Virus record (IMG/VR): IMGVR_UViG_2923318301_000004
Origin: a virus
Taxonomy: Duplodnaviria > Heunggongvirae > Uroviricota > Caudoviricetes
Strand: one strand, 5' to 3'
DNA: 24,630 nt
The notes beneath the pieces are model-generated. The model ran no database searches and had not been told where the DNA came from. It saw nothing but the letters and a program-made list of their open reading frames with translations. A program made the position numbers and the translations under genes. Positions 2,540 through 24,630 of the stretch are shown in pieces (position 1 is the first letter of the stretch; every line of letters begins with the position of its first letter).

Positions 2540-4543
2540 ATGATTATGAGTGAAAATGATACAATCCCAAAGAAGTCTACAAGTCAGATTAACAAAGCGG
2601 TATTCTTTACATCTGCTTTGCTAATTTTCCTTCTTGTCGCCTTTGCCGCCGTATTCCCGGATGTCGCCGACAAAAATTTTAAACTACTTCAGCAACAAAT
2701 CTTCACGAATGCCAGCTGGTTCTACATCCTTGCTGTGGCCCTGATTTTACTGAGTGTCACGTTCCTTGGACTCTCACGCTACGGTGATATCAAGCTGGGC
2801 CCGGACCATGCGCAGCCTGATTTCAGCTACCACTCCTGGTTTGCGATGCTTTTTTCGGCAGGGATGGGGATCGGCCTGATGTTCTTTGGCGTTGCCGAAC
2901 CTGTAATGCATTATCTTTCGCCACCCGTTGGCACTCCAGAAACCGTTGCGGCAGCTAAGGAAGCAATGCGTCTGACCTTTTTCCACTGGGGACTGCACGC
3001 ATGGGCAATTTATGCCATTGTGGCGCTGATTCTGGCGTTCTTCAGTTACCGTCACGGTCTGCCTTTAACTCTGCGCTCCGCACTCTATCCCATTATTGGC
3101 GATCGCATATACGGACCTGTAGGACATGCGGTTGATATTTTCGCTGTTATAGGCACGGTCTTTGGCGTTGCGACATCACTGGGTTACGGTGTTTTGCAGG
3201 TGAATGCCGGTTTGAACCATCTTTTCGGGGTGCCCATCAATGAAACGGTGCAGGTAATTCTGATCGTGGTCATCACGGGGTTAGCGACGATTTCAGTGGT
3301 GTCCGGTCTGGATAAGGGAATACGTATCCTGTCTGAACTCAATCTGGGTCTGGCTTTGTTGCTCCTGGCGCTGGTCCTGTGTCTGGGACCAACCGTGCTT
3401 CTGCTGAAGTCATTTGTGGAAAATACGGGCGGTTATCTTTCGGAACTGGTGAGTAAAACGTTCAACCTTTACGCGTATGAGCCCAAGTCGAGCAACTGGC
3501 TGGGGGGCTGGACATTACTGTACTGGGGATGGTGGCTTTCATGGTCGCCGTTTGTGGGGATGTTCATCGCACGGGTCTCCCGCGGGCGAACCATTCGCGA
3601 GTTTGTCACCGGCGTGCTGTTTGTTCCCGCGGGTTTTACGCTAATGTGGATGACGGTGTTTGGTAACAGCGCGATCTATCTCATTATGAACCAGGGGGCC
3701 ACAGACCTCGCCAATACTGTTCAGCAGGATGTGGCGCTGGCCCTGTTTAATTTCCTGGAGCATTTCCCGTTCTCTTCTGTGCTGTCATTCATTGCAATGG
3801 CGATGGTCATCGTCTTCTTTGTAACGTCTGCTGATTCGGGGGCAATGGTTGTGGATACTCTGGCATCAGGTGGAGTGGCAAACACACCCGTCTGGCAGCG
3901 AATATTCTGGGCCTCGCTCATGGGCATTGTTGCAATTGCGCTTCTCCTTGCCGGAGGGCTAAGTGCGCTGCAAACGGTGACAATAGCGAGTGCATTGCCC
4001 TTCTCAGTGATCTTACTAATATCTATATACGGACTTTTAAAAGCTTTGCGCCGGGATTTGACCAAGCGTGAAAGCCTGAGCATGGCGACAATTGCTCCTA
4101 CGGCTGCACGTAACCCAATTCCTTGGCAGAGAAGGTTACGCAATATCGCGTATCTGCCGAAGCGATCTCTTGTGAAACGTTTTATGGACGACGTTATCCA
4201 GCCTGCCATGACGCTGGTTCAGGAGGAACTGAACAAGCAGGGGACGATAAGCCACATTAGTGATGCAGTCGACGATCGTATTCGTCTTGAAGTCGATTTG
4301 GGCAACGAGCTGAATTTTATATATGAAGTGAGGCTTCGCGGGTATATCTCACCGACCTTCGCGCTCGCCGCAATGGATAATGATGAGCAGCAGACTGAAC
4401 AACATCGATATTATCGCGCTGAGGTTTATCTCAAAGAAGGCGGTCAAAATTATGATGTGATGGGCTGGAACCAGGAACAGCTGATTAATGACATACTGGA
4501 CCAGTACGAAAAACACCTGCACTTCCTGCACCTGGTTCGTTAA
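2540..4543 (+). CDS. BCCT-family (betaine/carnitine/choline) transporter, BetT-like with a long C-terminal cytoplasmic extension
   Basis: 667-aa ORF with many hydrophobic segments and BCCT signature stretches (WTLLYWGWWLSWSPFVGMFIARVSRGRTIREF; SADSGAMVVD); overall collinear with E. coli BetT as I recall it, including the roughly 170-aa hydrophilic tail. Confidence 0.85.
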   Translation: MIMSENDTIPKKSTSQINKAVFFTSALLIFLLVAFAAVFPDVADKNFKLLQQQIFTNASWFYILAVALILLSVTFLGLSRYGDIKLGPDHAQPDFSYHSWFAMLFSAGMGIGLMFFGVAEPVMHYLSPPVGTPETVAAAKEAMRLTFFHWGLHAWAIYAIVALILAFFSYRHGLPLTLRSALYPIIGDRIYGPVGHAVDIFAVIGTVFGVATSLGYGVLQVNAGLNHLFGVPINETVQVILIVVITGLATISVVSGLDKGIRILSELNLGLALLLLALVLCLGPTVLLLKSFVENTGGYLSELVSKTFNLYAYEPKSSNWLGGWTLLYWGWWLSWSPFVGMFIARVSRGRTIREFVTGVLFVPAGFTLMWMTVFGNSAIYLIMNQGATDLANTVQQDVALALFNFLEHFPFSSVLSFIAMAMVIVFFVTSADSGAMVVDTLASGGVANTPVWQRIFWASLMGIVAIALLLAGGLSALQTVTIASALPFSVILLISIYGLLKALRRDLTKRESLSMATIAPTAARNPIPWQRRLRNIAYLPKRSLVKRFMDDVIQPAMTLVQEELNKQGTISHISDAVDDRIRLEVDLGNELNFIYEVRLRGYISPTFALAAMDNDEQQTEQHRYYRAEVYLKEGGQNYDVMGWNQEQLINDILDQYEKHLHFLHLVR

Positions 4544-7391: not shown

Positions 7392-8451
<1,060 letters not shown>

Positions 8452-8455
<4 letters not shown>

Positions 8456-8869
8456 TGCCACTGCTGGATAAGCTGCGTGAGCAGTACGGGGTCGGACCGC
8501 TATGCAGCGAACTGCATATTGCCCCGTCAACGTATTACCACTGTCAGCAACAGCGACATCATCCGGATAAACGCAGTGCCCGTGCGCAGCGCGATGACTG
8601 GCTGAAGAAAGAGATACAGCGCGTATACGATGAAAATCACAAGGTATACGGTGTGCGTAAAGTCTGGCGTCAGTTGTTACGGGAAGGTATCAGAGTGGCC
8701 AGATGCACTGTGGCACGTCTCATGGCGGTTATGGGACTTGCCGGTGTTCTCCGGGGTAAAAAGGTCCGTACGACCATCAGCCGGAAAGCCGTTGCCGCAG
8801 GCGACCGCGTAAACCGTCAGTTCGTGGCAGAACGACCTGACCAGCTGTGGGTGGCTGATTTTACTTACG
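8452..8869 (+). pseudogene. IS629 OrfB transposase, 5' exon (interrupted by group II intron)
   Basis: [34 protein letters not shown]...QLWVADFTY then diverges at the intron 5' end (GTGTG at 8870). Confidence 0.8.
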
Positions 8870-9540
8870 GTGTGCCCGGAGTTCAGGGCGGGCATGGATG
8901 CTTAAATGAACCGCGAGTCTGTCTGGAATATTGAGCCGGTAACTCACGATGAGAAACCCAACAATCCCACCGGGTGTGACGGTGGAGAACCTGAGCGGCA
9001 GTGACCTGCGGCATGCCCGCAGGGTGATGTAACCCGCTGACAACGGGGATTGAGGCGAGATCACTAAGCCGAGATGATCCTCAAGGTTAAGTACTGAAAG
9101 GCTGAAGAACATGAACCCGTTAATCCGCCTCTGTGGGTTGAAAACGTCACCACGGCCTACGTGATCTGACAGGCCGTGCAGGAGGAACTGGCAGTGATAC
9201 GTAAGCACTGCCGGTCGAAGGTGTTTTGACATGTATGCGAAACACCGGGGCAGCAGCGTCTATCACGCTTGCGTTGCTGACTTCTGCCAACTTGCGGCAA
9301 GCAAGGATAAAGAGTGCGACGGGCAGCCTCCTCAGTATGCCTGAGTCCAGGCAGGTAAACCGGGGAAGGTCAGCGACGGATGTTAAGGGGGCATGGCTCC
9401 GATGACGCGCTGGCTGGCGGAGCTTCCGTAGTAGTCCGCGATGGGGAAAGCCCATTACATGGCGAAGGGAAGCAGTTTGAATGTGTTTGCGACGTGAATT
9501 AACTGACCTAACGAGGTGAAGACCTTTGATAATCAGCGAA

Positions 9541-11049
9541 ATGCAACGCAAGCTTGCCACATGGGCAGTCACCGATCCGTCCCTACGGATTCAACGGCTG
9601 CTGCGTCTGATAACACAACCAGAATGGCTGGCTGAAGCGGCGCGGATCACGCTTTCATCAAAGGGGGCCCATACCCCCGGCGTTGATGGCGTGAACAAAA
9701 CAATGCTACAGGCCAGACTGGCTGTTGAGCTGCAAATCCTCAGGGATGAATTACTCTCAGGCCACTACCAGCCCTTGCCCGCCAGACGGGTTTACATCCC
9801 TAAAAGCAACGGCAAACTGCGACCACTGGGTATCCCCGCGTTGCGGGATCGTATTGTTCAGCGGGCCATGCTGATGGCGATGGAGCCGATATGGGAGAGT
9901 GATTTTCATACGCTCTCATATGGCTTCCGGCCTGAGCGCAGTGTCCACCACGCGATCCGCACGGTGAAATTACAGCTCACAGACTGTGGTGAAACCCGGG
10001 GACGCTGGGTGATTGAAGGCGACCTGTCCAGTTACTTCGACACCGTACATCATCGACTGCTGATGAAGGCTGTACGCCGCAGGATCAGTGACGCACGTTT
10101 CATGACTCTGCTGTGGAAAACCATCAAGGCGGGACATATCGATGTCGGTCTCTTTCGGGCGGCCAGTGAAGGTGTGCCACAGGGCGGTGTTATATCGCCG
10201 CTATTATCGAACATCATGCTGAATGAGTTCGATCAATACCTGCATGAGCGCTACCTGAGCGGGAAAGCCAGAAAAGATCGGTGGTACTGGAATAACAGTA
10301 TCCAACGGGGCCGAAGTACGGCGGTCAGAGAAAACTGGCAGTGGAAACCCGCGGTGGCGTACTGCCGCTATGCCGATGATTTTGTCCTCATCGTCAAAGG
10401 CACCAAAGCACAGGCGGAAGCCATCAGGGAGGAGTGTCGGGGTGTGCTCGAAGGCAGTCTGAAACTCAGGCTGAACATGGATAAGACTAAAATCACCCAT
10501 GTTAATGACGGCTTTATCTTTCTGGGGCACAGGATCATTCGCAAACGCAGTCGTTATGGCGAGATGCGAGTGGTCTCAACGATCCCGCAGGAGAAAGCCA
10601 GAAACTTCGCCGCATCGCTGACAGCACTGTTATCAGGCAACTACAGTGAAAGCAAAGTCGATATGGCTGAACAACTCAACCGAAAACTGAAAGGCTGGGC
10701 CATGTTCTATCAGTTCGTTGATTTTAAGGCCAAAGTCTTCAGTTATATCGACCGTGTCGTGTTCTGGAAGCTGGCTCACTGGCTGGCCCGCAAATACCGT
10801 ACAGGTATCGCTTCCCTGATGAGGTGGTGGTGTAAATCACCGAAACCGGGTCAGAGCAAAACGTGGGTTTTATTTGGTAAAACCAATCACGGCAAGCTCA
10901 GCGGCGAAATACTGTACCGGTTGGTGGGGCAAGGCAAGAAGCTGTTCCGCTGGCGGCTACCCGAAGGTAATCCCTATCTGAGGACGGAGACCAGAAACAC
11001 GTATACATCGCGCTTTACAGAAGTGGCAATGGCGTTCGCCAGCATTTAA
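9541..11049 (+). CDS. Group II intron-encoded protein (reverse transcriptase/maturase)
   Basis: RT motifs in order (RPLGIPALRDRIVQ; SYGFRPERS; YCRYADDFVLIV) followed by a maturase (X) domain; start assigned to the first ATG (MQRKLATW...) rather than the TTG at 9526 used by the ORF track. Confidence 0.85.
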   Translation: MQRKLATWAVTDPSLRIQRLLRLITQPEWLAEAARITLSSKGAHTPGVDGVNKTMLQARLAVELQILRDELLSGHYQPLPARRVYIPKSNGKLRPLGIPALRDRIVQRAMLMAMEPIWESDFHTLSYGFRPERSVHHAIRTVKLQLTDCGETRGRWVIEGDLSSYFDTVHHRLLMKAVRRRISDARFMTLLWKTIKAGHIDVGLFRAASEGVPQGGVISPLLSNIMLNEFDQYLHERYLSGKARKDRWYWNNSIQRGRSTAVRENWQWKPAVAYCRYADDFVLIVKGTKAQAEAIREECRGVLEGSLKLRLNMDKTKITHVNDGFIFLGHRIIRKRSRYGEMRVVSTIPQEKARNFAASLTALLSGNYSESKVDMAEQLNRKLKGWAMFYQFVDFKAKVFSYIDRVVFWKLAHWLARKYRTGIASLMRWWCKSPKPGQSKTWVLFGKTNHGKLSGEILYRLVGQGKKLFRWRLPEGNPYLRTETRNTYTSRFTEVAMAFASI

Positions 11050-11053
11050 ATGG

Positions 11054-11087
11054 AGAGCCGGATGCGCTGAAAGGTGCACGTCCGGTT
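11054..11087 (+). ncRNA. Group II intron domain V (catalytic hairpin)
   Basis: GAGCCGGATGCGCTGAAAGGTGCACGTCCGGTTC: about 34 nt, AGC triad near the 5' end, 2-nt bulge, GAAA tetraloop, immediately after the IEP stop codon and about 50 nt from the intron 3' end. Confidence 0.65.
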
Positions 11088-11111
11088 CGGGGAGGAGAGG
11101 CAGGGAAATAG

Positions 11112-11612
<501 letters not shown>

Positions 11613-11654: not shown

Positions 11655-12792
11655 CTCATCTGCCGCTCTACCGCATCCCTCGACCATAATCCCGACTCAA
11701 TCAACGAACTACAAGCCATCGTCCTGAAGCCATGCCCACAAACCTCGACCTTCGTGTCATACCCCATTACGCGCAAAGCCTTGTTCACCGTATTCTCACT
11801 CATCGGCTTACGTGGATCGTGATCGCCCACAAAAATCAGCTCTCAATTTCCGCTCATGCTTTTGATCTTTTCCAAAATACTTAGGGCCTGCCGCGACAAA
11901 GGTACAAGGTGTGGTGTCCGCATCTTCGAGCCACGCTGAGAATGCTTGACTCCTTCCAGTTGCTCACGCTCACCTGGGATTGTCCACATAGCCGTTTCAA
12001 AATCTACTTCTGACCAGCGGGCAAAATGCAGCTCGCTCGAACGGATGAAAACCAATAAAGTGAGTTCAACCGCCAGCCGAGTTAACGGTCTGCCAGAATA
12101 GTGATCTATGCGATGAAGTAATTCAGGTATACGGTTCAGTTCAAGAGCTGCACGGTGCTGTCTTTTCGCCGTAGCAACCGCACCTGCAATCTCTTGCGCG
12201 GGGTTGTAGTCGATTAAGCCGCTCTGAACGGCAAAGCGCATAATCGCGGTAGTACGCTGCTGTAAACGGGCGGCAACTTCGAGCCGCCCGGATGACTCGA
12301 CTGCTTTAATGGGTACAAGAAGATCCCGCGTCTTCAGTTCCGCAATGTTCCGCTTACCGATAGCAGTAAAGAGATTATCCTCCAGACTTTTCAAAACACG
12401 AGCGCTATGCGATGCCGACCACTTCTGATTGCTGGCGTGCCAGTCTCTGGCGACTACTTCAACGTTATCGCCTCTTGTTCCTGTTCTACCTTAACAGCTT
12501 TCTTGTTTTCACTGGGATCGACACCATTAGCTAAAAGCTTACGAGCCTCATCCCGGCGTGCCCTGGCATCCGCCAACGACACTTCGGGGTATTTCCCCAA
12601 TGCCAGCATCTTCTCTTTACCGCCAAAGCGATAACGTAGCCGCCAGTATTTGGAGCCGTTAGGGTGAACCAGCAAAACCATGCCTTCACCGTCGGTCAGC
12701 TTATAGGCTTTTGCTTCAGGCTTAGCCGAACGAACCTTCACATCACTCAGAGCCATGATGAGTATCCTTTCAAGGGTTCTGTGTGGGTACAA
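11655..12792 (-). pseudogene. P4-type tyrosine integrase pseudogene (frameshifted, C-terminus removed by IS629)
   Basis: Three consecutive minus-strand ORF pieces (12454-12792 N-terminus MALSDVKVRSAKPEAKAYKLTDGEGMVLLVHPNGSKYWRLRYRF...; 11843-12394; 11615-11830) together cover a P4-like integrase but in different frames; the last piece abuts the IS629 end. Confidence 0.8.
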
Positions 12793-12954
12793 ACATTATC
12801 GAACCGGGAAATACCCGCAGTTGTACCCGCATCAGTAAGTTGATGTAGATTGAATCAGGTTGACTTAGGTTGAGTGAAAAAGCGAGGAAAGCCTTGCGGA
12901 TACTGGATTTTAGGCACAAAAAAAGACGTCCGTTGACGTCTATTGATGTTCCGA

Positions 12955-12976
12955 TGGTGCGAAGGCCGGAATAGAA
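12955..12976 (-). other. Degenerate tRNA-Leu (leuX) 3'-end-like sequence; candidate att remnant of a P4-like element
   Basis: Minus strand reads TTCTATTCCGGCCTTCGCACCA, close to the 3' end of leuX as I recall it (TTCGAGTCCGGCCTTCGGCACCA); lies about 160 bp upstream of the integrase pseudogene, as in tRNA-int junctions. Confidence 0.4.
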
Positions 12977-13210
12977 TAACTATATAACTCATTGAACATG
13001 ATGATAAAAATTTTATAGCTTATGACTTGTGCCCCATTTTGTGCCCCCAACAAAATCTTATTGTTGCTAACTAGCACAATAAATGAATTAGCAAGATAGA
13101 GTTGCCTAGTTAGGTTCCGTCTTACAGAGCCTAACCAGAACAACCAAACCTCTGAACCAACCTTGCGCAAGCTAGATAAAGTCATGCTGATTTATTAGGA
13201 CAACAAGCTA

Positions 13211-14143
13211 TTAAATTTCATATTTTGAAATTTCGCTGATTACATCATCCCCATATTTCTTAATCATGGAGGCAAAGAATTTATGTTCAATAAATTTCGC
13301 ATAGCCTAATTCTCCTTTAAGGGTTAGAATTTCTTTCTCAGATAAAACCCCACACACATAATAATGTATTTTACTTCTTAAAAGACGCTTTCTATCACGA
13401 CCTAAAGACAAATAACCATCAGTCGTAATAGTTACACCAGTTACATGTCTATTAAACTTCCTTGAGGTAAAAACTGTTTTCTCATGGTTTATTTTAATAT
13501 TCCTAAGATTTACTACGTTAAGAACTTCCCTTACTAACTTAGGAACATCAAATAAAGCTCCTTTGACTTTGGTGCTAAACGTAAGATCATCAGCATACCT
13601 TGAGTAGGTAATACCCAAATCCTTGCATCTTTTCGATATTTCCTCATCGAAGAAATACATTACTGTATTTGAAATAATGGGAGAAGAAGGTGCTCCAACA
13701 CTTAGGCGTAACGGGCTATTTCTTCTTAACTTCCAGAAGAAAAGATTTTTAAGAACAAAGATATCAGTATCAGTTAGTTCAACGCCATAATCTTTTAAGA
13801 CAGATAAAAGATTATGGGGTTTGATACTCATAAAAAAGTTTTTAAAATCCATTTTAAGCAAATAATCATTATTACAATGCATTAACGCATTAGATCTAAT
13901 ACTTTTATCGGCTTCATAAGCGAAAGCATTTTCATGAACTTTCAAATTAGCCAACATATGATTGATTACTACCTTCTGTAAGGCTTTAACTTGCCTAGCT
14001 GGTTGTGCAATTAATCTATATCCATTACCATTTCTTTTGGCGATAGGATAAATTTTATATCTGCGTGGAATAGTAACAATATACCTTTTAGCCTCTTCTT
14101 CGCTAAGAAAAAGACCTTTTGAAATATAACTTAGCAACTCCAT
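13211..14143 (-). CDS. Retron-type reverse transcriptase
   Basis: About 310 aa, RT domain only (no maturase or endonuclease); motifs SNALMH (NAxxH), FKNFF, VGAPSSP, YSRYADDLTFS (YADD) and NRHVTGVTI (retron VTG); start ATG lies 1 nt after the upstream effector stop (TAGaATG); collinear with Ec86 RT as I recall it. Confidence 0.85.
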   Translation of the reverse strand: MELLSYISKGLFLSEEEAKRYIVTIPRRYKIYPIAKRNGNGYRLIAQPARQVKALQKVVINHMLANLKVHENAFAYEADKSIRSNALMHCNNDYLLKMDFKNFFMSIKPHNLLSVLKDYGVELTDTDIFVLKNLFFWKLRRNSPLRLSVGAPSSPIISNTVMYFFDEEISKRCKDLGITYSRYADDLTFSTKVKGALFDVPKLVREVLNVVNLRNIKINHEKTVFTSRKFNRHVTGVTITTDGYLSLGRDRKRLLRSKIHYYVCGVLSEKEILTLKGELGYAKFIEHKFFASMIKKYGDDVISEISKYEI

Positions 14144-14144
14144 T

Positions 14145-15131
14145 CTAAGCCCCTCCACGCACGATATTGATTTGATTTAGAGCATTTTTCCTTTTTTTTG
14201 CAGTCTCGTCCATATCTTTAGCATCCATACTTAAGTAAGATTGTCGGATTGCAACCTTAATATTCATAGAATCCTTTATTTTACCACTAGCACTGATACC
14301 AAATTTAAGTTTACTCTCTCTATGCCCTCGGGAATAGAAGTAGTCTGTACCACTGTAAGATAATGATGAGGTTAATTTCATCTTTTCAAGCAAATAAAGT
14401 AAACGAGTTATTATTTTTTGTGGCACATCTATATCCATACAGTATAGTGCCCACTCTATTTCGCTTTTCTTGATTGGTTCTGATAAAAGGATTATTTCGT
14501 AAATCAATATAGCTAGGTGCCCAGTATTTTCAGGGTTATATCGCTCCGTTTTTTTTACACGTTTTAATCTAGAATGAATATCATGGTAGATAAGCTCAAC
14601 CTCATCATATTTCATACGATCCGATTTTGGCCATGGATAAACTGATACTGAGGCCTCATCTATTTTTTTAAGATACTCCAAAGGGCCTAAATATATAAAA
14701 GAAGATCTAGCAGGAATATTTTTTCGTTCATTTCCCTCAATCTCCTCAAATGGTGCGACTACATGCAATTTTTGAGCTAGAGACTTCCTATTAACAAATA
14801 ATCCAAGCTCAACTAACGAACCTGCACTTTCTAAACAGATAACAACTAATGTTGAAATATTTGCAATATCATCTTCAAAGCTCATTAGATCTGAATATGC
14901 CCCCTCTCTGAAGTAGTCATGGAAGTTCTCAGCTAAAATAAGAGAATCTGACAATTCAGGTTTGTGGCCTGCTACATAAGTAAATATGTGGTCTCGTACA
15001 CTCATTGGAGTGGAATTTATCGGCCCACCACAAACAAAAATAATAGGAGGCATGAACTGAACAGTGAAATTTGAATATTTCAAATCTCCAAACTGCTCTT
15101 GTAATGCATTCATATATGCAGAATCACTCAC
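14145..15131 (-). CDS. Retron effector, putative nucleoside 2-deoxyribosyltransferase-like (NDT) domain plus C-terminal putative DNA-binding domain
   Basis: 328-aa ORF between the structured non-coding region and the RT; N-terminal region PPIIFVCGGPI...ICLESAGSLVELGLF resembles the Rossmann-like NDT fold with a candidate catalytic Glu; likely GTG start at 15131 with AGGGGGT as RBS (alternative ATG at 15113). AT-rich codon usage like the RT. Confidence 0.6.
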   Translation of the reverse strand: MSDSAYMNALQEQFGDLKYSNFTVQFMPPIIFVCGGPINSTPMSVRDHIFTYVAGHKPELSDSLILAENFHDYFREGAYSDLMSFEDDIANISTLVVICLESAGSLVELGLFVNRKSLAQKLHVVAPFEEIEGNERKNIPARSSFIYLGPLEYLKKIDEASVSVYPWPKSDRMKYDEVELIYHDIHSRLKRVKKTERYNPENTGHLAILIYEIILLSEPIKKSEIEWALYCMDIDVPQKIITRLLYLLEKMKLTSSLSYSGTDYFYSRGHRESKLKFGISASGKIKDSMNIKVAIRQSYLSMDAKDMDETAKKRKNALNQINIVRGGA

Positions 15132-15139
15132 CCTTGTGA

Positions 15140-15420
15140 CCCCCTACTCCAAAAGAAAAGGTGGCTAACCAGCCACCTTCGACCCCTTTACCTAAAGGAT
15201 GCGCTTTAGACTTTCAGCAAGATCCTGAATGGAACGCAGTGGCATGAAGGATCTTGCTGAAAGTGCTAAAGCGCAACCCTAAATGTCCACAATAAATTAG
15301 TGTCTGGCGAAACGCCCGACAAGGATAAACCTGTTATCCCGCGCGTAAAGGTAGGGTTAGGATAGCAAAAGATGCGAGATTTTCAATAAGTAAGCGTACT
15401 GGCTGCCAGCAACCACCTAA
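15140..15420 (-). ncRNA. Candidate retron ncRNA (msr-msd) upstream of the effector/RT operon
   Basis: Non-coding, structure-rich stretch immediately 5' of the effector: long imperfect hairpin 15201-15274 (GCGCTTTAG.CTTTCAGCAAGATCC / GGATCTTGCTGAAAG..CTAAAGCGC), a candidate msd stem; second hairpin 15159-15180. Exact ends and a1/a2 repeats not resolved by eye. Confidence 0.45.
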
Positions 15421-17328: not shown

Positions 17329-17506
17329 GACTTCTCCTGTCGGGTTGGTTCGTTACGTCAATTGTGTCGTGGCTGACACAAGCACACTATCGGTGCTCAG
17401 TGTGTGGTGGCTGGCACAACGGACGCTTGCGGTTATTCAGACGTGGCTATGAAAGCCAGCCAGATAAAAATGCCCTCTGTTTCAGTCTGCTTTATGTCCC
17501 TGATGC

Positions 17507-17694
17507 GGTGGAACAGGTGAAACATGTGTTACAGCTTTGTTTTATAAGGCATTTATATACACTGCACCGGTGGAACATCGCGGGTAACAAGGTGGAACAG
17601 CGGATTGGCTGGCGTTACATCTGTTCCACCTCACTATTTCAGAAGGTGGAACAGGTTCAGCCCTGTAAAATACGGTTGTTCCACCTGTTTCACC
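17507..17694. repeat. Iteron cluster: 8 copies of TGTTCCACC / GGTGGAACA (two are TGTTTCACC variants) in both orientations
   Basis: Copies at 17507, 17516, 17569, 17591, 17622, 17646, 17677, 17686; in the non-coding gap between the alpha-like primase gene and sid; closely resembles the TGTTCACC octamers of P4 ori/crr that are bound by alpha. Confidence 0.6.
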
Positions 17695-17728: not shown

Positions 17729-20401
17729 TTAACCCGGCACCTCGCTGTTGAAGACATAGAGCCTGCGGGGATTCATCTCTGGCGGGCGAATGGTTGTCTG
17801 GAGTTTGCCATCAGTGGAGGGCAGCAGGTATCCACGATCTGCGCACAGACGCGCCACCTTGCGCGGGTCAAATCCCCTGCAGATTTCTTTCCAGCCGGAC
17901 GGCATGACATAGAACGTAGTGACAGCTTCCGTGCCCTGCGCGGTACTGCCTTTCTCCACCCTGCGCCAGCCCACCATATTGCCGGGGCGGTTGCGCTCGT
18001 CATACCAGTCTGCAAAGCGGCTGTACTGATTCGCGGTAAAGAAACTGCGAACCTGCTCCAGTGCGGCGATATCTTCCTGATTGGCGGTGTGCCCGCGATC
18101 TTTCAGCCATGCGTTCAGGCAGACGCGGGTTGCCCGCAGTGCTTCACCCTCAGGCCAGCCGGTGATACCCAGACGGGTTGCCAGTTCACCTGCCATCGCC
18201 ACCAGAGCAAAGCGGTTCACAGCCCGGCCCACCTGATTGCCTGCATCTTTCGGAGTCAGGGCGGCAGCATATTCCTTCATCAGCGATTTTGCCTGTGCCG
18301 TTAGTCCGTTAAGATCAGCGGTCAGTGCTTTCAGCCACTCCCGGAACGGCGAACCGTAGTAGCAGGACGTGGCCCATTCAAGATGCTCTGCCAGAGCCTT
18401 GCCGCTGTCGAAGCCGTGCAGCTCCTCAAAAACGCCAAACTTCCCGGAATCGCTGGGGATCTGGATCATCCTGACTTCCATCCCGGCAAAAGTACGCTCA
18501 CCGGCCTTTGCCGCATGTTCGGTCAGAGACAACTCGCCAGTTGAAAAGAACAACAGGCGCCAATGCTTACGGGTACGCAGCTCACCGTCCGTACCGGCAC
18601 GGCCCTTGCCCTGACCGTTTGCCAGCATGTAGGCGATATTGCCTGCCTCGCGTCCGTCAACTTCCCGGATCTCATCAAGCATCATGGCGGCATCGTTGCG
18701 GCGGCTGGCGCATCCCTCCAGCGCGTTGCCGGTGGCCCGCCATGTCTGCCAGTAGTCAGGCCCGCCGCAGACGGAGGTTGCCGCTTTCATGGTGGTGGTC
18801 TTACCGTCTGTCGATTCCCCTTTGAGGTGGTAGCCGCCGCCGTCCATACCAACCAGCCGTAACAGTGGTGCAGCAAAGGCCAGGCTGACAGCAAATGCCA
18901 CGCGGGAGTTGCCGGTACAGTAGCGGGATACATGCTCCCGCCATTCCTCTGTTGTGCCCGACACGCGGAAATCACGCCCCTGCACGGAAGTGGTCTGGAG
19001 AATGACACCCTCTGCACCTTCACCGCTGACCTCATCCTGCAGGACGTAAACCTGACCATGCCAGCCAGTACGACTGACGCAGGTCACGCGGCGTTCCGGT
19101 TTACACAGTGAGATATATTCCATCAGGCGTGCGCGTGCCTCACCGGTGGTGCTGATATAAGACAGCCCGTTAACCAGCAATACCCGGCGCAGTTCCTCAC
19201 CACTGCCGCTCAGCATTTCCATCGGCATCGCCCAGCGGCGACACTCACCCCACGTATCTTCCCATTCCAGCAGTCGTCCGAAGTTACCGCCATCGGCATC
19301 GCAGGTGATTGCCGTCACGCGCAGCGGGCTGCATATTTTGACGTTCTGGATCTCCGTCTCACCGTTGCGCTGTACCTGCTTTTCATACCAGAGATATTCC
19401 TGGGTAAGACGGAACCCGTGCGGCAGTTGCGTGCGGCCCTCCCCGCACAGCACCAGACCGTTACGAAAGGCTTCACGGGCGCGGGTAATACCGTGCTCCC
19501 GATGGAAGTCATTCCAGTCGGCCTTAATCTCTCCCGGTGGCAGCGTCATCCAGCCGCCAACAGCTTTTGCCGCCCGTTCAGCAAAGGCTCTGCCGGGATT
19601 CTCACCCCCGTCCTGAAAATCGTTATCACCGGCGATGATAATTTTTACCTCAGGCCAGCGTGCCCGCAGCGACTGCGCCACATTGGGCAGGTTGCCCGCA
19701 GATATGGCAGCCACTACGCATCCGGCAGTGAGCTGACTTACCGTCAGCGCCGTAGCGTAACCTTCGGTAATCACCACCTGTACCGGTGGTTCAGACGGTA
19801 ACGGGCTGAGCGACACAAACGCGCCTTTCATCGTGCTGCCGGGCAGTATGCTTTTTTCACCCGTCGGGGCGATAAGCTGTGCACCAGTCACGGCTCCGGT
19901 GTTGGTCGTGAGTGGTAACAGCAGGGAACCGGCAGGAAAATCCTTACCGCTGATATGCTGCACGCTTCCGGTCAGAGAGGCCGGGTATCCGGCGAACCCT
20001 TTTCCTGTCAGATAGGCGCTTTCTCCCGTGTGGCTCTCTTTCATCAGCGCCGCCACGGTAAGACCCATGTCGCGTTTAGGGGCTTTTTTTCTGGCAGGCT
20101 TAACAGGCAGTTCCTGCACATCCGGCACATTAAGCACCTGCGCCACCTCCTGCGCAGCCTTTCTGACGCTGTAACCGGTTACGAGCTTAACCAGATCCAG
20201 ACCGTCACCATTGCCACACTGGCTGCAGATCCACGTCCCGCGCCCGTCAAGGTCATCAAGGCGAAAACGATCCTTGCCCCCACATTTCGGGCAGGGACCG
20301 TGCCTGCCGTTTTCAGGTACATCAATACGCAGCATCTGGAGAATAACGGGCCATTTCCCCCGTGCGGCGGCTGAAATCTGCGTAACCGTCTGTATTGTCA
20401 T
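17729..20401 (-). CDS. P4 alpha-like primase-helicase (zinc-binding N-terminus, TOPRIM primase, C-terminal P-loop helicase)
   Basis: 890 aa; CPKCGGKDRFRLDD...WICSQCG zinc ribbon; TOPRIM-like VVITEGYATALT...IIAGDNDFQDGGENPG; Walker A GESTDGKTT. Confidence 0.85.
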   Translation of the reverse strand: MTIQTVTQISAAARGKWPVILQMLRIDVPENGRHGPCPKCGGKDRFRLDDLDGRGTWICSQCGNGDGLDLVKLVTGYSVRKAAQEVAQVLNVPDVQELPVKPARKKAPKRDMGLTVAALMKESHTGESAYLTGKGFAGYPASLTGSVQHISGKDFPAGSLLLPLTTNTGAVTGAQLIAPTGEKSILPGSTMKGAFVSLSPLPSEPPVQVVITEGYATALTVSQLTAGCVVAAISAGNLPNVAQSLRARWPEVKIIIAGDNDFQDGGENPGRAFAERAAKAVGGWMTLPPGEIKADWNDFHREHGITRAREAFRNGLVLCGEGRTQLPHGFRLTQEYLWYEKQVQRNGETEIQNVKICSPLRVTAITCDADGGNFGRLLEWEDTWGECRRWAMPMEMLSGSGEELRRVLLVNGLSYISTTGEARARLMEYISLCKPERRVTCVSRTGWHGQVYVLQDEVSGEGAEGVILQTTSVQGRDFRVSGTTEEWREHVSRYCTGNSRVAFAVSLAFAAPLLRLVGMDGGGYHLKGESTDGKTTTMKAATSVCGGPDYWQTWRATGNALEGCASRRNDAAMMLDEIREVDGREAGNIAYMLANGQGKGRAGTDGELRTRKHWRLLFFSTGELSLTEHAAKAGERTFAGMEVRMIQIPSDSGKFGVFEELHGFDSGKALAEHLEWATSCYYGSPFREWLKALTADLNGLTAQAKSLMKEYAAALTPKDAGNQVGRAVNRFALVAMAGELATRLGITGWPEGEALRATRVCLNAWLKDRGHTANQEDIAALEQVRSFFTANQYSRFADWYDERNRPGNMVGWRRVEKGSTAQGTEAVTTFYVMPSGWKEICRGFDPRKVARLCADRGYLLPSTDGKLQTTIRPPEMNPRRLYVFNSEVPG

Positions 20402-20781
20402 ACTTCCCCCTGATACAACGTCACACCGGTACTGCAGAAGTCATCAAAGGCCGCCGGAAGCGTGCGGTACATCTCCGCCATCACTTCACAGCCGCGCGCG
20501 GTCAGTACCGGCGGCGCGGTCAGCAGTGACGGCTCCAGCATGTCAGTCAGCAGTGCCAGCGCGGCAGCGGCGCCCTGTGCTTCGCCGTACTCGTTAATCA
20601 GTACGCACTCGATATGCAGCGCAATGGCCATTTCAATACGCTCCACCGTCAGGCTGTGCGGACCATACTGATCACTGCCAGTTTCGTTCAGCATTTTCTG
20701 CCGCCATGCTGAAGCAATAGCCCGCCGGTAAAGCGCGGTGGTCATTTCTGCCGGGAAAATGGAAACCTGCGGCTGGTTCAT
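20398..20781 (-). CDS. Hypothetical protein (P4-like left-operon gene preceding alpha)
   Basis: 127-aa ORF whose stop overlaps the alpha start (ATGA); position corresponds to the epsilon/orf151 region of P4; no motif recognised. Confidence 0.45.
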   Translation of the reverse strand: MNQPQVSIFPAEMTTALYRRAIASAWRQKMLNETGSDQYGPHSLTVERIEMAIALHIECVLINEYGEAQGAAAALALLTDMLEPSLLTAPPVLTARGCEVMAEMYRTLPAAFDDFCSTGVTLYQGEV

Positions 20782-21062
20782 CTGGCACCTCCTTCAATCA
20801 GTGCGCAGCTGTGTGCAATATCCGTCAAATCTGCCAGCAGGTACTCCATCAGCGCGGCGACACCATGCGCACAGCCAGCGTCCAGTGCTCCGGCCTGAGA
20901 CGGGTATTCAGAAAAGAGAAGCTGGAGCATGTCGCAGGCATTTCTTGCGCGGGTCAGTTTTCCGAAACTGTCCTCTGACAACCCATAGGCAAAAGCACCG
21001 GTATTGTGTTTTTCAGGCAAAGTGTGGCCCTGAGCACCGTTGTGCCCGTTTGAAATATTCAT
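20778..21062 (-). CDS. Hypothetical protein
   Basis: 94-aa ORF, 4-nt overlap with the downstream ORF (translational coupling); no motif recognised. Confidence 0.4.
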   Translation of the reverse strand: MNISNGHNGAQGHTLPEKHNTGAFAYGLSEDSFGKLTRARNACDMLQLLFSEYPSQAGALDAGCAHGVAALMEYLLADLTDIAHSCALIEGGAR

Positions 21063-21093
21063 CGTGGATTACTCCGTTTTCAGCGGTATTTTG

Positions 21094-21453
21094 TCAGAGA
21101 AACTTTGAATAGTGACCGTCGTCAGGCTCAGCAGAACGCCGTATGCTACGCTCCCGCCAGCGGATAAATAGCACAGACGGATGCAGTGTCAGCGGGCCGG
21201 AACCACTACCGCCAGCAGGAGCTGGTGCAGGCTTCAAGAGCGGTACATCAAACAGGCGCGTATACCGCTGTTCAAACCATGCCAGAGGGCAGGAAGAAAG
21301 CTGGTTGTCGCTGTCATGACGTATCAGCACTTCACAGCTGAATTCAGGATTAACCAGCGCCACAGAGGGCGAGGCTTCTATTAATCGGATAATCGTGACC
21401 GTCCAGCCACGTTCATGCTGCCAGCGTTCGCCGGGGTGCGGATAATTACGCAT
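21094..21453 (-). CDS. Hypothetical protein
   Basis: Start taken at ATG 21453 (MRNYPHPGERW...), which overlaps the stop of the upstream small ORF (ATGCGTAA); the ORF track begins 10 codons earlier. Confidence 0.4.
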   Translation of the reverse strand: MRNYPHPGERWQHERGWTVTIIRLIEASPSVALVNPEFSCEVLIRHDSDNQLSSCPLAWFEQRYTRLFDVPLLKPAPAPAGGSGSGPLTLHPSVLFIRWRERSIRRSAEPDDGHYSKFL

Positions 21454-21622
21454 GTTCACCTCCGCAGGGAATGCGCCCGGCAAAGCTCAGTACATAGTCC
21501 GGGGCAAGTCTGCGCCGCGCTGACCGCTCGTTATCTGCGGTGATCCTTAACATCACAGGACGGGCATTGCGTTGACTGCGGTTGATCGCCGCAAATAACC
21601 AGGTACACTTCTGTTTAGCCAT
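21446..21622 (-). CDS. Hypothetical small protein (58 aa), first gene of the alpha operon
   Basis: ATG at 21622 preceded by GAGGTAACGAAG; this frame is the 3' part of a longer 244-aa ORF on the track that I consider spurious upstream of this start. Confidence 0.4.
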   Translation of the reverse strand: MAKQKCTWLFAAINRSQRNARPVMLRITADNERSARRRLAPDYVLSFAGRIPCGGEHA

Positions 21623-21695
21623 CTTCGTTACCTCATTTAGCGGATTGGTCAGAAGCCCGGTTAGTGTTGCTGCACTGTCGGGCTTCGCACTCACA

Positions 21696-21793
21696 AGGTG
21701 AATCGCACCTTTAATTTTAAAGCTACCCTTAAGTGAATCGCACTTCAAGCTTTTTATTATCATTTTTTTTGCATATACTGAATCGCACCTAAC
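21696..21793. promoter_or_regulatory. Divergent promoter region with three copies of the near-palindromic motif (G)TGAATCGCAC(C)
   Basis: TGAATCGCAC at 21699, 21734 and 21779; the third copy sits between a TATACT -10-like hexamer (21774-21779) and the RBS of the plus-strand small gene. Confidence 0.45.
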
Positions 21794-21809
21794 GCGAGGA
21801 GATCCAGTA

Positions 21810-21995
21810 ATGGCAACGAGTTCAACTAACAACAAGTCGCAGCAACTTAATGCTCGTTTCCCACATGATGTAGTTGCAGAATTAGAAAGCAACCTTGAAG
21901 ATGGAGAAACGAAAGCGCAATTCATTGTTACGGCTGTAAAAGGCGAGATTAAACGCCGACAGCGCAGGAAAAATAAGCCAGAGCAAGGTAGTTGA
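21810..21995 (+). CDS. Small putative DNA-binding regulator (61 aa), divergent from the alpha operon
   Basis: ATG with AGGAGA RBS 7 nt upstream; basic C-terminal tail (KGEIKRRQRRKNK); possible ribbon-helix-helix. Function inferred only from size, charge and position. Confidence 0.45.
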   Translation: MATSSTNNKSQQLNARFPHDVVAELESNLEDGETKAQFIVTAVKGEIKRRQRRKNKPEQGS

Positions 21996-22057
21996 ATAGA
22001 GAAGCCAACAGACGTTCTCTCTGTTTCCATGTTAATTTCAGTAAGCGACAATATTTT

Positions 22058-22091
22058 TAAGCCCACAAATTCATTATGTCGGGCTTTTTTA
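22058..22091 (+). terminator. Putative intrinsic terminator after the 61-aa gene
   Basis: AAGCCC...(16-nt loop)...GGGCTT followed by TTTTATT; the loop is long, so this is tentative. Confidence 0.35.
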
Positions 22092-22322
22092 TTAGTGATT
22101 TTCATATCGCTCACCACGAGAGGCATATATTTGCTCTTGAATCCAGTGATCCACTTCGCTTTCAACAAATGAAATTGCACGAGTTCCTATTTTCACCGGA
22201 CGGGGAAATGTATTGTTTGCAAGCTGTTTGTAAAGCCATGCCTTGCTACGCTGAACGCGTCTTAAGACCTCTTTTGCTGAGATAAGAGTCTGATTATCTG
22301 AAAAGCTGTTTGCATATTCCAT
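22092..22322 (-). CDS. alpA: AlpA/Vis-family phage regulatory protein (excisionase-like winged HTH)
   Basis: MEYANSFSDNQTLISAKEVLRRVQRSKAWLYKQLANNTFPRPVKIGTRAISFVESEVDHWIQEQ matches the AlpA/P4 Vis pattern; start placed at ATG 22322 (GGAGT RBS 8 nt upstream) rather than the track's 22367. Confidence 0.7.
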   Translation of the reverse strand: MEYANSFSDNQTLISAKEVLRRVQRSKAWLYKQLANNTFPRPVKIGTRAISFVESEVDHWIQEQIYASRGERYENH

Positions 22323-22699
22323 CTTGTTACTCCGTGTTCTACTTAAGTTCACGGTGACTTTAAACACTGGGAAAAAGTGATTCTAGTGATAATGGAATCT
22401 ATTAAGACAAATATTGATTCTATTGAAAAACAATAATCTCCACTGAAAAAAGAAGTAATATTCATATGAAAGAACACGGAGAGAAGGAAATGCACAAAAA
22501 AAAACAAAATCAATAGAATTCATATGGATAGGATGGAAAATCAAAAAATCATATGTCAAAAGGTATTATTGCATTTTAACGATTCATATTACCTAGGAAT
22601 TAGCACAGTATTACACCATATTACATCGTATTACCCCCTATAGCCCGTTAGAGCCTCTTGTGGCCCTTCTATTGAGAGATAGCCAGAAAATTAATAAAT

Positions 22700-23338
22700 T
22701 TACTCTCCGTATTTTATAATGTCTTTCCCAAGCTTTATTTTCTTATAAAACGTAGCTTTTTTAACCCCTTTCATTAGAATCTCATTCTCATTACAAAAAG
22801 AAACAATATCATTATATATAACACTATTATCGCTATAACTTACCTTTCCATGTCTCTTAAGCAATTCAATTAGTAAATAAATTAATTTACAACTATAATT
22901 ATCCTCATCATCTTTTCTGTACTGCCCTCTACCATTACTCCTTAATTTTTTACCAACTTCATATAATTCACTTCCTCCTAACGTCATTAGAATATCACTC
23001 CAATCTTTATTTTTTACCTGTTGTCGTAATGCGTTCTCAATTCTCTCCTTAATCTCCACAGGTACAATACCTTCCCTCTGAAAGATATAAGCGGCAGTTA
23101 ATAATAAGTTCGCCTCCACTTTTTGCGTGGCGGATACGTTTTTATATTCATTAATTAATTGTAGATTTCTGGTTATTGCCTTTCTTAATCTAATAACCTC
23201 TTTTAATTGAACCTCAGTCAATTCATCATTTTCGGTATCATAGTCAAAACCATTCATAGCAAGCGCCACTTCGTGTGGCGTTATGTAAGTTAACCTATTA
23301 AAATAAAACAAATTATTATCAAATTGAGTATTATTCAT
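22700..23338 (-). CDS. Hypothetical protein, AT-rich orphan gene between int and alpA
   Basis: 212-aa ORF with markedly AT-rich, Lys/Asn/Ile/Tyr-rich composition unlike the flanking integrase and P4 core genes; no family recognised. Confidence 0.6.
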   Translation of the reverse strand: MNNTQFDNNLFYFNRLTYITPHEVALAMNGFDYDTENDELTEVQLKEVIRLRKAITRNLQLINEYKNVSATQKVEANLLLTAAYIFQREGIVPVEIKERIENALRQQVKNKDWSDILMTLGGSELYEVGKKLRSNGRGQYRKDDEDNYSCKLIYLLIELLKRHGKVSYSDNSVIYNDIVSFCNENEILMKGVKKATFYKKIKLGKDIIKYGE

Positions 23339-23367: not shown

Positions 23368-24630
23368 TTATTTTCCATGCATACGCGCAAAATCATATGG
23401 TGTGACAGATCCATTCTTATTAGCATCAATATAATCAGCCCACCACTGCAGCATTAATCTTCTTTCTTCAAGATATTCGGAAGTATGCATATATGAACCT
23501 TTCACATTTTTTCGTTCAACGTGGCTTAACTGTCTTTCAATGGCATCATCATTCCATAGTTTCGACTCACTTAGCGCACCACGCGCCATAGTTCTAAACC
23601 CATGACCACATACTTCAGTTTTCGTATCATATCCCATTACACGTAAGGCGTTATTTACTGTATTTTCACTCATTACTTTTTTAGGATCATGATCGCTGGG
23701 AAATATAACCTCACCTTTACCACTCAAGGCATGTAAACGTTTAAAAATATCAAATGCTTGTTTGCTAAGCGGAACAATATGTTCAGTTTTCATCTTCATC
23801 CCACGCTCAGAGTGTTTTACGCCGGGAATAGGCTTACGAATTCCGGGTATTGTCCACTCGCTTCGTTCAAAGTTAACCTCACTCCAGCGAGCAAAACGCA
23901 TCTCACTTGAACGTATAAATGTGAGTAGCGTTAATTCAACGGCAAGCCGTGTCATTAGTCGCCCTTTATAGCGTGATAGTCTTTCAAGAAGCTCAGGGAT
24001 TCTTTTTGGGGGTAGTGCTGGGTGGTGGGTTGCTTTAACGCTTAAAAGCGCTCCAGCCATATCGCATGCAGGATTTGATTCAAGGAGGTCATTCTGCACA
24101 CCAAAACGCATAATTGCGGTTACGCGCTGCATCAGTCGCTGCGCGACATCATGTTTACCCGCCGTATCGACAGCTTTGATTGGATTGAGAAGCTGGCTGG
24201 TTCTCAACGTTCTGGCATCGATTTGACCTATCGAGGGGAAAATATACTGCTCAAGTGTCAGCAGAACACGACGGCTATGATCTTCGCTCCAAGTAAGGTT
24301 ACTTGCGTGCCATTGCCTTGCGATAGTTTCAAATAAATATGCCCCCTCAATTTCAGCTTGTGCCCCCTTTTGCTCAGCTTTGGGGTCAATACCCTGAGAC
24401 AACAATTTCTTTGCTGCATCGCGCTTACCCCGCGCTTCAGCCAAAGTGACCGTCGGGTATACACCAAAAGCGAGTCGATCTTCCTTTTTGTCAGAGGGGC
24501 GGCGATATTTCATGCGCCAGTACTTAGAACCTTTAGGGGAGACCTCAAGATACAAACCGCCTCCATCAGCCATTTTATAAGCTTTCTCTTTCGGCTTTGC
24601 GGTCTCTATCTGGCGAGCGTTGAGTTTCAT
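23368..24630 (-). CDS. int: P4-type tyrosine integrase (intact, 420 aa); start codon at the window edge
   Basis: N-terminal AKPKEKAYKMADGGGLYLEVSPKGSKYWRMKYR... and C-terminal catalytic region (HGFRTMARGAL...; ...YMHTSEYLEERR) typical of the P4/IntA family. Confidence 0.9.
   Translation of the reverse strand: MKLNARQIETAKPKEKAYKMADGGGLYLEVSPKGSKYWRMKYRRPSDKKEDRLAFGVYPTVTLAEARGKRDAAKKLLSQGIDPKAEQKGAQAEIEGAYLFETIARQWHASNLTWSEDHSRRVLLTLEQYIFPSIGQIDARTLRTSQLLNPIKAVDTAGKHDVAQRLMQRVTAIMRFGVQNDLLESNPACDMAGALLSVKATHHPALPPKRIPELLERLSRYKGRLMTRLAVELTLLTFIRSSEMRFARWSEVNFERSEWTIPGIRKPIPGVKHSERGMKMKTEHIVPLSKQAFDIFKRLHALSGKGEVIFPSDHDPKKVMSENTVNNALRVMGYDTKTEVCGHGFRTMARGALSESKLWNDDAIERQLSHVERKNVKGSYMHTSEYLEERRLMLQWWADYIDANKNGSVTPYDFARMHGK

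Follow-up and report, generated by a model that had tools for sequence, protein, structure and literature searches.

The described immunity systems that resemble the locus analysed here include: (i) the immunity region of P4, in which the CI RNA and seqA are the immunity elements and control is exerted at termination, (ii) immI of P22, where Mnt and Arc regulate the ant operon, (iii) immI of P1 and P7 (c4 RNA, icd, ant), with the C4 antisense RNA as the controlling element of P1, and (iv) Stl of the SaPI/PICI elements, a satellite repressor that blocks the replication operon at divergent promoters. To our knowledge, P4, with its CI RNA, is the only one of the P4-like satellites and gram-negative PICIs whose silencing is understood in detail; gram-negative PICIs are described as devoid of an Stl-like repressor, and we know of no description of a PICI master repressor. 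According to the part of PMC10111431 that summarises Forti et al. 1999, P4 has a promoter inside eta that is constitutively active, Kil is a truncated form of Eta, and the translation of Eta permits read-through of the late transcript.

The window, a stretch of 24,630 nucleotides (IMG/VR record IMGVR_UViG_2923318301_000004) to which all positions below refer, is a P4-like satellite prophage of Escherichia coli that adjoins tRNA-Leu in strain M217. Its 1-kb switch region matches the chromosomes of numerous E. coli strains at 100% identity and was found in 332 of the 5426 complete genomes of this species, compared to 893 of the 5426 with the P4-type RNA region. The region includes three repeated sites and an adjacent gene for a 61-aa protein of the YlcI/YnfO family. 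The sites are read here, with a probability of roughly 75%, as operators of this protein, which would be an Arc/Mnt-like repressor that silences the replication operon.

The window carries the P4-like core set, comprising homologs of the integrase, alpA, alpha, sid, psu and delta (Pfam, NCBIfam), while no epsilon homolog was detected in the window. On the minus strand are the integrase (23368-24630, by annotation and Pfam/NCBIfam), a 212-aa ORF (22700-23338) and an AlpA/Vis-type regulator (22092-22322; Pfam PF05930, E = 1.1e-11), the last upstream of the switch and on the same strand as the alpha operon. The gene of the net-basic 61-aa protein (21810-21995) is on the plus strand, divergent from the alpha operon, and is followed by a hairpin and T-run (22059..22091, plus strand) that read from the sequence as its terminator. 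A generic terminator scan overlooked this hairpin because its loop is longer than 8 nt. The first gene of the alpha operon encodes an Icd-like protein of 58 aa (21446-21622, minus strand; NCBIfam NF033153, 84 bits), a homolog of P4 Kil that aligns over 46 aa with the C-terminus of P4 eta/kil at 54% identity (E = 8.5e-13). The remaining operon (17729..21456, minus strand) includes a 120-aa ORF, a 94-aa ORF, a DUF5375 protein (P4 orf106-like) and the alpha primase-helicase (17729-20401; 890 aa, TOPRIM/DUF927).

This arrangement is like that of the P4 immunity region, as it has alpA/vis, an eta-like frame that covers the 3' end of alpA and ends as a Kil/Icd-like protein, small genes, a DUF5375/orf106-like gene and alpha; the gene order of P4 is vis/ORF88, the 'cI gene product' ORF, epsilon, ORF151, ORF106 (DUF5375) and alpha. 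Both elements also have an internal promoter (predicted, in the window) upstream of kil and a control element inside eta, the P4 arrangement being as outlined in the summary in PMC10111431. A likeness to P1/P7 immI is that translation of the operon under control starts with an Icd-like gene, with its expression as the control point. By contrast with P4, in which these genes are divergent, the sid-like, psu and delta genes of the window are located downstream of alpha; a retron St85 pair is also present. A late-promoter element (TGT-N12-ACA) was not found upstream of alpA and occurs instead upstream of the sid-like gene.

The RNA elements of P4 immunity were recovered from the P4 reference (NC_001609) with Rfam, the CI RNA as C4 at 8420-8507 (74.9 bits) and seqA as isrK at 8615-8692 (60.8 bits). 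Neither C4 nor isrK was detected in the window, whether at the gathering threshold or at permissive thresholds (E <= 1 to 10), nor was either detected by Rfam in 20 related loci. The sole Rfam match is weak (24.6 bits versus a cut-off of 61), SymR-like and on the strand opposite to the leader of the leftward transcript; it is attributed to the hairpin of that leader. Thus, unlike P4 and P1, the locus has no relative of C4 that Rfam detects, and unlike P4 it has an opposite-strand protein gene and three putative DNA operators, such that control would fall on promoter initiation rather than on termination. The initial annotation had suggested a protein-based switch where P4 uses an RNA (cI), and this suggestion is supported, since C4 and isrK are found in P4 and not here while the downstream genes are P4 homologs. 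The comparison supports the view that the switch would be a protein-operator variant of the P4 immunity region.

The three repeats reside in the 187 bp that separate the start of the Icd-like gene from the start of the small gene. A 10-mer, TGAATCGCAC, occurs at 21699, 21734 and 21779 (plus strand), at intervals of 35 and 45 bp, and can be extended in all three copies to the 12-mer TGAATCGCACYT, of the form TGAATCGCAC(C/T)T. The motif is found nowhere else in the 24.6-kb window. A triple 10-mer inside 100 nt, present once in the window, was present in 0 of 300 dinucleotide-preserving shuffles; thus, a chance origin of the cluster is excluded. The initial annotation described a near-palindromic 11-mer in three direct copies between the start of the alpha operon and a divergent 61-aa basic protein, the third copy overlapping the TATACT of the small gene. 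The three copies, their positions, their spacing, the flanking genes and the overlap with TATACT are as described, the positions given being those of the T of the 10-mer. Other parts of the description require adjustment: the exact 11-mer, GTGAATCGCAC, is found only at 21698-21708 and 21733-21743, whereas the third copy (21778-21788) reads CTGAATCGCAC with a first base, C, that differs from the other two, so that it is the 10-mer that is common to all; the repeats share one orientation in the window but can be inverted in relatives and are thus not strictly direct; and the region is not simply intergenic, as it lies inside the eta-like frame.

When their flanks are considered, the repeats form three putative operators of unequal symmetry. 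O1 (21695..21711; AAGGTGAATCGCACCTT) is the most symmetric, a 17-bp palindrome (AAGGTG-AATCG-CACCTT, of the pattern WWGGTG-N5-CACCWW) around the core at 21698-21708; the operator of Mnt is likewise symmetric and 17 bp in length. O2 (21731..21745; AAGTGAATCGCACTT), with its core at 21733-21743, retains two flanking pairs of the symmetry. O3 (21778..21790; CTGAATCGCACCT) is the least symmetric and retains the right half, CACCT, alone, the left half being lost because it is occupied by the -10 element of the small gene. From this gradation an affinity order of O1 >= O2 > O3 is inferred, under which the operon would be tightly controlled, while the repressor would limit itself only when its level is higher. 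The intervals of 35 and 45 bp place the sites off a single face of the helix, and cooperative binding is not obvious.

The positions of the sites relative to two predicted, back-to-back promoters are consistent with repression. The leftward promoter, P_left (21720..21748, minus strand), is a consensus-level assignment with a -35 of TTGAAG (reverse complement of 21743-21748), a 17-nt spacer (TGCGATTCACTTAAGGG) and a -10 of TAGCTT (reverse complement of 21720-21725); the TTG of the -35, the 17-nt spacing and the TA...T of the -10 are kept in all 18 loci examined. The predicted promoter of the small gene, P_right (21751..21779, plus strand), has a -10 of TATACT (21774-21779) and a weak, T-rich -35 (21751-21756). 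Its -10 occurs as TATACT, TATAAT or CATAAT at a constant offset, with site 3 directly after it, in 16 of 18 loci. A generic promoter scan listed neither promoter, P_right being omitted because of its weak -35. O2 occupies the entire 17-nt spacer of P_left, O1 spans about +2 to +20 of this promoter and so lies over its start region, and O3 starts at the last base of the -10 of P_right and covers the predicted start region; in Xenorhabdus, site 1 directly adjoins the leftward -10. On the promoter assignments made here, the positions of all three sites are repressive. This layout agrees with the autoregulated repressor of the replication operon that was initially proposed, with O3 abutting the -10 of the small gene, O2 in the spacer of P_left and O1 over its start.

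Sites 1 and 3 are transcribed, and O1 can form a 6-bp hairpin; in addition, the flanks of O1 keep their inverted symmetry through A-T/T-A swaps. The repeats may accordingly be considered as RNA elements (a 5' hairpin, an antisense target or a terminator), or else as binding sites of a host factor. Such a role is given very little weight, as the hairpin flanks are missing from sites 2 and 3, no conserved T-run follows site 1, this site is found in both orientations, and a host factor would not be expected to change its specificity along with a protein of the satellite in the same host genera. A generic scan did mark O1 as terminator-like; the non-conserved T-run led to the rejection of O1 as an intrinsic terminator.

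Short repeats beside a replication operon are also reminiscent of the ori and crr iterons of P4, to which the alpha primase-helicase would bind, and the GGTGAA of the sites resembles GGTGAACA, the reverse complement of the P4 type-1 iteron TGTTCACC. The likeness does not extend further: eight exact copies of TGTTYCACC, in both orientations, are found at 17507-17694, directly after alpha, where P4 has crr, whereas no motif of the TGTTYCACC or TGTTCACC type is found at 21690-21800. Identical or class-matched sites are moreover present in islands that have other replicases, or none within the fetched flank, and the core of the sites follows the small protein and not the primase. The iteron reading is thus rejected, being the least credible of those considered.

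The protein that would bind the operators is the 61-aa protein. It is assigned to NCBIfam NF041551 (YlcI_YnfO_N) over residues 9-50 with 65.7 bits and E = 2.8e-18 (cut-off of 30 bits); the identical protein is annotated in RefSeq as YlcI/YnfO family, and one source names it a CopG-family regulator. The family is small: a search of 1.84 billion proteins gave 87 representatives at E <= 0.001, and at 90% identity there are 105 clusters, which all come from Enterobacterales. Pfam has no family for the protein (CB_ParB_C and PSK_trans_fac are matched below threshold only), Foldseek gave no match in the PDB, and a profile search of PDB sequences gave a single, irrelevant match. No described function of the YlcI/YnfO family, and nothing on the module analysed here, was found in the searchable literature. 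The K-12 members of the same NCBIfam family, YlcI (DLP12) and YnfO (Qin), are likewise of no described function; YlcI shares the strand-helix-turn-helix pattern (RNIRFPNQMIEQ...GSGNFSAW). Unlike the protein of the window, YlcI and YnfO are encoded beside the terminase (nohD) genes of lambdoid remnants and not beside a replication operon. They are distant relatives, as no homolog of the 61-aa protein was found by tblastn among 50,697 phage records.

Several lines, each weak alone, make a ribbon-helix-helix fold of the Arc/Mnt type probable. The AF2 model of the monomer (pLDDT 74) has helices at residues 19-30 and 35-54 and an extended N-terminus without a strand; the strand of this fold forms in the dimer only. 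A turn of the G-x-S/T/N type (D-G-E-T) is present between the helices. The predicted recognition strand is Q12-L-N-A-R-F17, within a strand motif, Q-x-N-x-R-(F/W)-P-x-(D/E)-V, that is shared with Arc. An hhalign comparison to Arc pairs QQLNARFPHDVV with PQFNLRWPREVL at P = 6e-4 but at a probability of 29%, which falls short of significant family membership by sequence and is a point of difference from P22 immI. To these lines is added the co-variation of residues 13-14 of the strand with the core of the sites.

As the small gene is antisense to a long open frame, it may be regarded as an artefact of that frame. This is rejected, as its frame has the highest synonymous fraction (79% of the codons with a single difference are synonymous), with 1921, 1540 and 4983 differences at codon positions 1, 2 and 3, respectively. 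The gene also has its own Shine-Dalgarno sequence, promoter and terminator, and encodes residues that co-vary with the sites.

The co-variation is apparent from 90 loci, of which 17 come from contigs of a set with one genome per species, 13 from look-ups of the exact protein and 60 from IMG/VR. The module occurs in at least 10 enterobacterial genera, and its sites are at -31, -76 and -111 (O3, O2 and O1) from the ATG of the small gene in nearly all loci, the position of O1 being kept in most. The same offsets are seen in Citrobacter, Morganella, Proteus, Dickeya, Pectobacterium, Xenorhabdus, Yersinia, Salmonella, Siccibacter, Cedecea and others. A lack of conservation in related elements had been named in advance as evidence against operators; what is observed across the 90 loci is conservation at fixed offsets. 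In eight representatives of one class (class A), drawn from different genera, the columns without variation are those of the sites, the promoter hexamers and the Shine-Dalgarno sequence; the remainder drifts. An inverted distal site (site 1) is found in Xenorhabdus, Cedecea, Salmonella, Siccibacter and some E. coli islands. Such an inversion fits a symmetric unit bound by a protein and speaks against a promoter element or an RNA motif of fixed orientation.

While the outer GTG...CAC of the sites is constant, the central 5 bp fall into classes that match residues 12-17 of the small protein. The strand QLNARF is accompanied by the core AATCG (60 loci), QKTARV or QKTARI by ACTTG, ACTCC or AAC(A/G)C (23 loci), TIAARV by TTGAA (5 loci), FMTARV by ATACA (1 locus) and QIGARF by AACCG (1 locus). 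No exception across the five classes is found among the 90 loci, although these are phylogenetically related and represent about five independent changes rather than 90, such that the clean partition overstates their independence. The operators proposed by the initial annotation are in this way supported by sequence comparison, in that the core co-varies with the recognition strand predicted for the small protein and with no other neighboring gene.

Where loci share exactly the AATCG core, the small protein is 72-100% identical, while the Icd-like protein is at most 43% identical or undetectable, AlpA is at most 56% identical or absent, and the N-terminus of the primase is at most 42% identical, absent or of a different family. 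The replicases that accompany the module vary, with a D5_N/Pox_D5 replicase in three loci (L022, L017 and L028) and a DnaG zinc-ribbon protein in another (L032). The module is also found in PICI-like islands that have AlpA, AntA/Bro and a primase of the D5 or DUF927 type. In Pectobacterium a DnaD-like gene is present, and the predicted leftward promoter would drive the icd-like gene and the integrase. The only constant partners of the module are the small gene and the Icd-like gene.

These comparisons bear on two other candidate proteins. The AlpA/Vis-type regulator, which may activate or repress the operon from the sites as Vis acts on the late promoters of P4, is encoded 100 bp past the small gene on the strand of the operon, and site 2 is near the -35, a position compatible with an activator. 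According to PMC8628076, AlpA is believed to have a regulatory role in P4-like satellites and gram-negative PICIs. Binding by AlpA is nonetheless considered very unlikely: its homologs are at most 56% identical or undetectable within the flank at loci with identical cores (e.g., Pectobacterium, where the neighbors are an integrase and a DnaD-like protein), the core classes follow the strand of the small protein, and a site that fills the spacer together with a site over the start is the layout of a repressor.

The Icd-like/Eta-like (Bro-network) protein is the other candidate, its gene being the other constant partner of the module and its matches in PHROGs (phrog_1743 and phrog_6928) being labelled 'transcriptional repressor'. 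The label, however, appears to derive from the old annotation, as 'cI gene product', of the ORF in which the CI RNA of P4 lies. The Icd-like protein is very different at loci with identical sites and more alike at loci with different sites: those of L019 and L021 are nearer to the protein of the window (52-53%) than is that of Pectobacterium (40-43%), yet their sites have another core. In L020, the Icd-like gene is lost while the sites and the small gene are retained. Binding by this protein is therefore assigned only a sliver of the probability. Among the neighboring genes, the core of the sites tracks the small protein only, and not AlpA, the Icd-like protein or the primase.

The eta-like long open frame (21446..22186, minus strand; 21446-22180 as the mechanical ORF) is antisense to the small gene, spans all three sites, the leader and both promoters, and ends in frame as the Icd-like protein. 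The frame extends into the 3' end of alpA, and ATGs in phase with it lie at 22126 and 22105, the second of them 13 nt before the stop codon of alpA (22092-22094). In P4, eta (8168-8812, minus strand) similarly overlaps vis, by 49 nt, contains seqA and the CI RNA, and ends as the 65-aa Kil. By analogy, P_left would correspond to PLE of P4. The T-run of the hairpin at 22059-22091 is on the plus strand only, so that alpA transcripts could pass it.

The openness of this frame is conserved. On the minus strand, the wobble-aligned frame antisense to the small gene is free of stops inside the gene in 17 of 18 loci (the probability of this, given the protein, is about 0.14-0.54 per locus), and codons before CAx end in A, G or C and never in T. 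Across the 190 nt of the operator and leader region, the same frame is free of stops in 17 of 19 loci, against a chance expectation of about 1-2% per locus, and the two remaining frames of the minus strand contain 1-12 stops in this region. Among distinct IMG/VR loci, 35 of 50 have the frame open from beyond the small gene into the Icd-like gene, again compared to about 1-2% expected. In one locus (L027), the eta-like frame is about 500 aa with an N-terminal Bro-N domain. As the antisense frame over the small gene is also constrained, the conservation of this sequence is partly shared by the two readings. The gene is in this respect unlike those of P22 immI, being nested antisense in another frame; a repressor gene antisense within a frame that must stay translatable would be an unusual case of overlapping constraints.

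Between the sites and the Icd-like gene, the leftward transcript would have a structured leader (21623..21694, minus strand), in which an interrupted hairpin of 13 bp (21652-21686) is followed first by UCU(A/G)ACCA, conserved and single-stranded, and then by a small hairpin that displays the Shine-Dalgarno sequence in its loop. Among 16 loci, 88% of the cells are paired, whereas sliding the partners gives 21-45%; both sides change in ten pairs, and the covariation score reaches 0.257 versus at most 0.093. The leader may control the translation of kil or the stability of the transcript and could thereby add a second, post-transcriptional layer of control.

Taken as a repressor with three operators, the 61-aa protein would act as follows. 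In the resident satellite, it would be made from its own promoter (-10 TATACT) and, when bound to O2 in the spacer and to O1 in the start region, would turn P_left off. The Kil/Icd-like protein and the alpha primase would then be silent, such that the satellite would neither replicate nor harm the cell. O3, which is probably the weakest site, abuts the -10 of the repressor gene and would allow the repressor to limit its own synthesis. The protein and its operators would take the place of the CI RNA and seqA of P4, inside an eta-like frame that is translationally linked to alpA. Read-through from alpA, being antisense to the repressor gene, would escape the block at the operators and oppose expression of the repressor, like the PLL transcripts of P4.

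This arrangement is like P22 immI in that a tiny, divergently encoded protein of ribbon-helix-helix type is paired with near-symmetric sites that overlap back-to-back promoters, and is unlike it in having three sites rather than one operator per protein and in that the putative target is an operon from Kil to the primase rather than an antirepressor. It is also like Stl of the SaPI/PICI elements, as a satellite repressor is predicted from the sequence to act at divergent promoters and block a replication operon, although the protein is of an unrelated family and much smaller. We know of no helper-encoded antirepressor for the family of the 61-aa protein.

The small protein may alternatively bind the sites in a role other than that of a maintenance repressor, be it a transient, Arc-like shut-off, an activator or an antidote to the Kil/Icd-like protein; Mnt, for example, activates its own promoter. 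Such a role is judged unlikely. The small gene, being monocistronic and divergent, has a promoter and a terminator to itself and is not co-transcribed with a toxin, and the positions in the spacer, in the start region and at the edge of the -10 are all repressive. The alternative also overlaps with the maintenance repressor preferred here, as silencing of kil and alpha is what immunity would amount to in this element.

A joint reading of these observations, to which somewhat less than even odds are given, is that a portable cassette, composed of an Arc-like repressor gene antisense in eta, three operators and back-to-back promoters, may replace CI/seqA immunity in a considerable share of the P4-like satellites and of the gram-negative PICI-like islands. 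Its specificity, of at least five types, would be determined by two residues of the strand; these types would then represent immunity groups, read-through from alpA with translation of Eta would flip the switch, and a first function would be provided for YlcI/YnfO in the y-ome of E. coli. The module is widespread, being found in 332 complete E. coli genomes versus 893 with the P4-type RNA and in many other Enterobacterales as well. If the 61-aa protein is the repressor of the resident state, it would define immunity groups among co-resident satellites and give a function to an uncharacterised protein family of E. coli. Operator mutants and repressor deletions would provide a direct handle to induce elements that carry defence systems, and the naturally matched pairs of strand and operator would be of use for the study or engineering of ribbon-helix-helix specificity.

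The Icd-like gene that heads the alpha operon is preceded by a conserved, structured leader on the minus strand (21623-21694). Compensatory changes are present in its hairpin at 21652-21686, and the remaining leader elements include a conserved UCU(A/G)ACCA and a small hairpin that presents the Shine-Dalgarno sequence. On the strand opposite to the leader, Rfam gives a weak, SymR-like match (24.6 bits), which is probably a reflection of the leader hairpin. The leader, together with the operators and the entire 61-aa gene (in antisense), lies within a long open frame on the minus strand (21446-22186), which is in frame with the Icd-like gene and extends into the 3' end of alpA. The openness of this frame in the related loci is far above chance, and the arrangement matches the nested eta/kil genes of P4.

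Certain related loci (L027 and L028/L029) encode the small protein as a 103-aa form with an extra C-terminal half (3001-3312); here the sites are of greater degeneracy and a fourth, inverted site resides at about -54 from the ATG. The YlcI of E. coli K-12 (580251-580445) is flanked by ybcW and the terminase gene nohD of prophage DLP12, a context quite unlike the satellite module. CATCTAC-type repeats are present upstream of this K-12 gene.

Rfam matches to the int-alpA RNA are noted in two other related loci (L005, 847-913; L003, 6057-6125), and none is detected in the window at the Rfam gathering threshold. Between the integrase and alpA of the window is a 212-aa ORF (22700-23338, minus strand) that has no Pfam or NCBIfam family and whose sole match is phrog_30524 (E = 1e-108), a PHROG of unknown function.

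The window also carries an IS3-family element (8129-11139) with an ALIL frameshift pseudoknot (8410-8526, 120 bits) and an inserted group II intron, which encodes the ltrA reverse transcriptase and has an intron domain match at 11053-11139. Beyond this element, at approximately 11843-12990, is a second, degraded integrase. The minus strand at 15145-15352, immediately upstream of the genes for the retron St85 effector and reverse transcriptase (13211-15131), has sub-threshold Rfam matches to retron msr (42.2 bits vs. 52) and STnc400 (55.4 vs. 80), and is probably the non-coding RNA of this retron.

Two TGT-N12-ACA dyads, TGTGTCGTGGCTGACACA (17363-17380) and TGTGTGGTGGCTGGCACA (17401-17418), are found just upstream of the sid-like gene. 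This motif is that of late promoters activated by Ogr/Delta; none is found upstream of the window's alpA. In the AT-rich region upstream of alpA, a GTAATA-type unit of 10 bp is repeated in tandem about 2.6 to 4 times (22601-22640; TRF consensus TATTACACCA). In P4, three 10-bp 'type 2' ori repeats, of different sequence, are arranged in tandem upstream of vis, the alpA homologue. Directly downstream of the alpha gene, TGTTYCACC occurs in eight exact copies in both orientations (17507-17694). Because these are near-copies of the type-1 iteron bound by P4 alpha (TGTTCACC), this stretch probably represents the satellite's crr/ori-type region.
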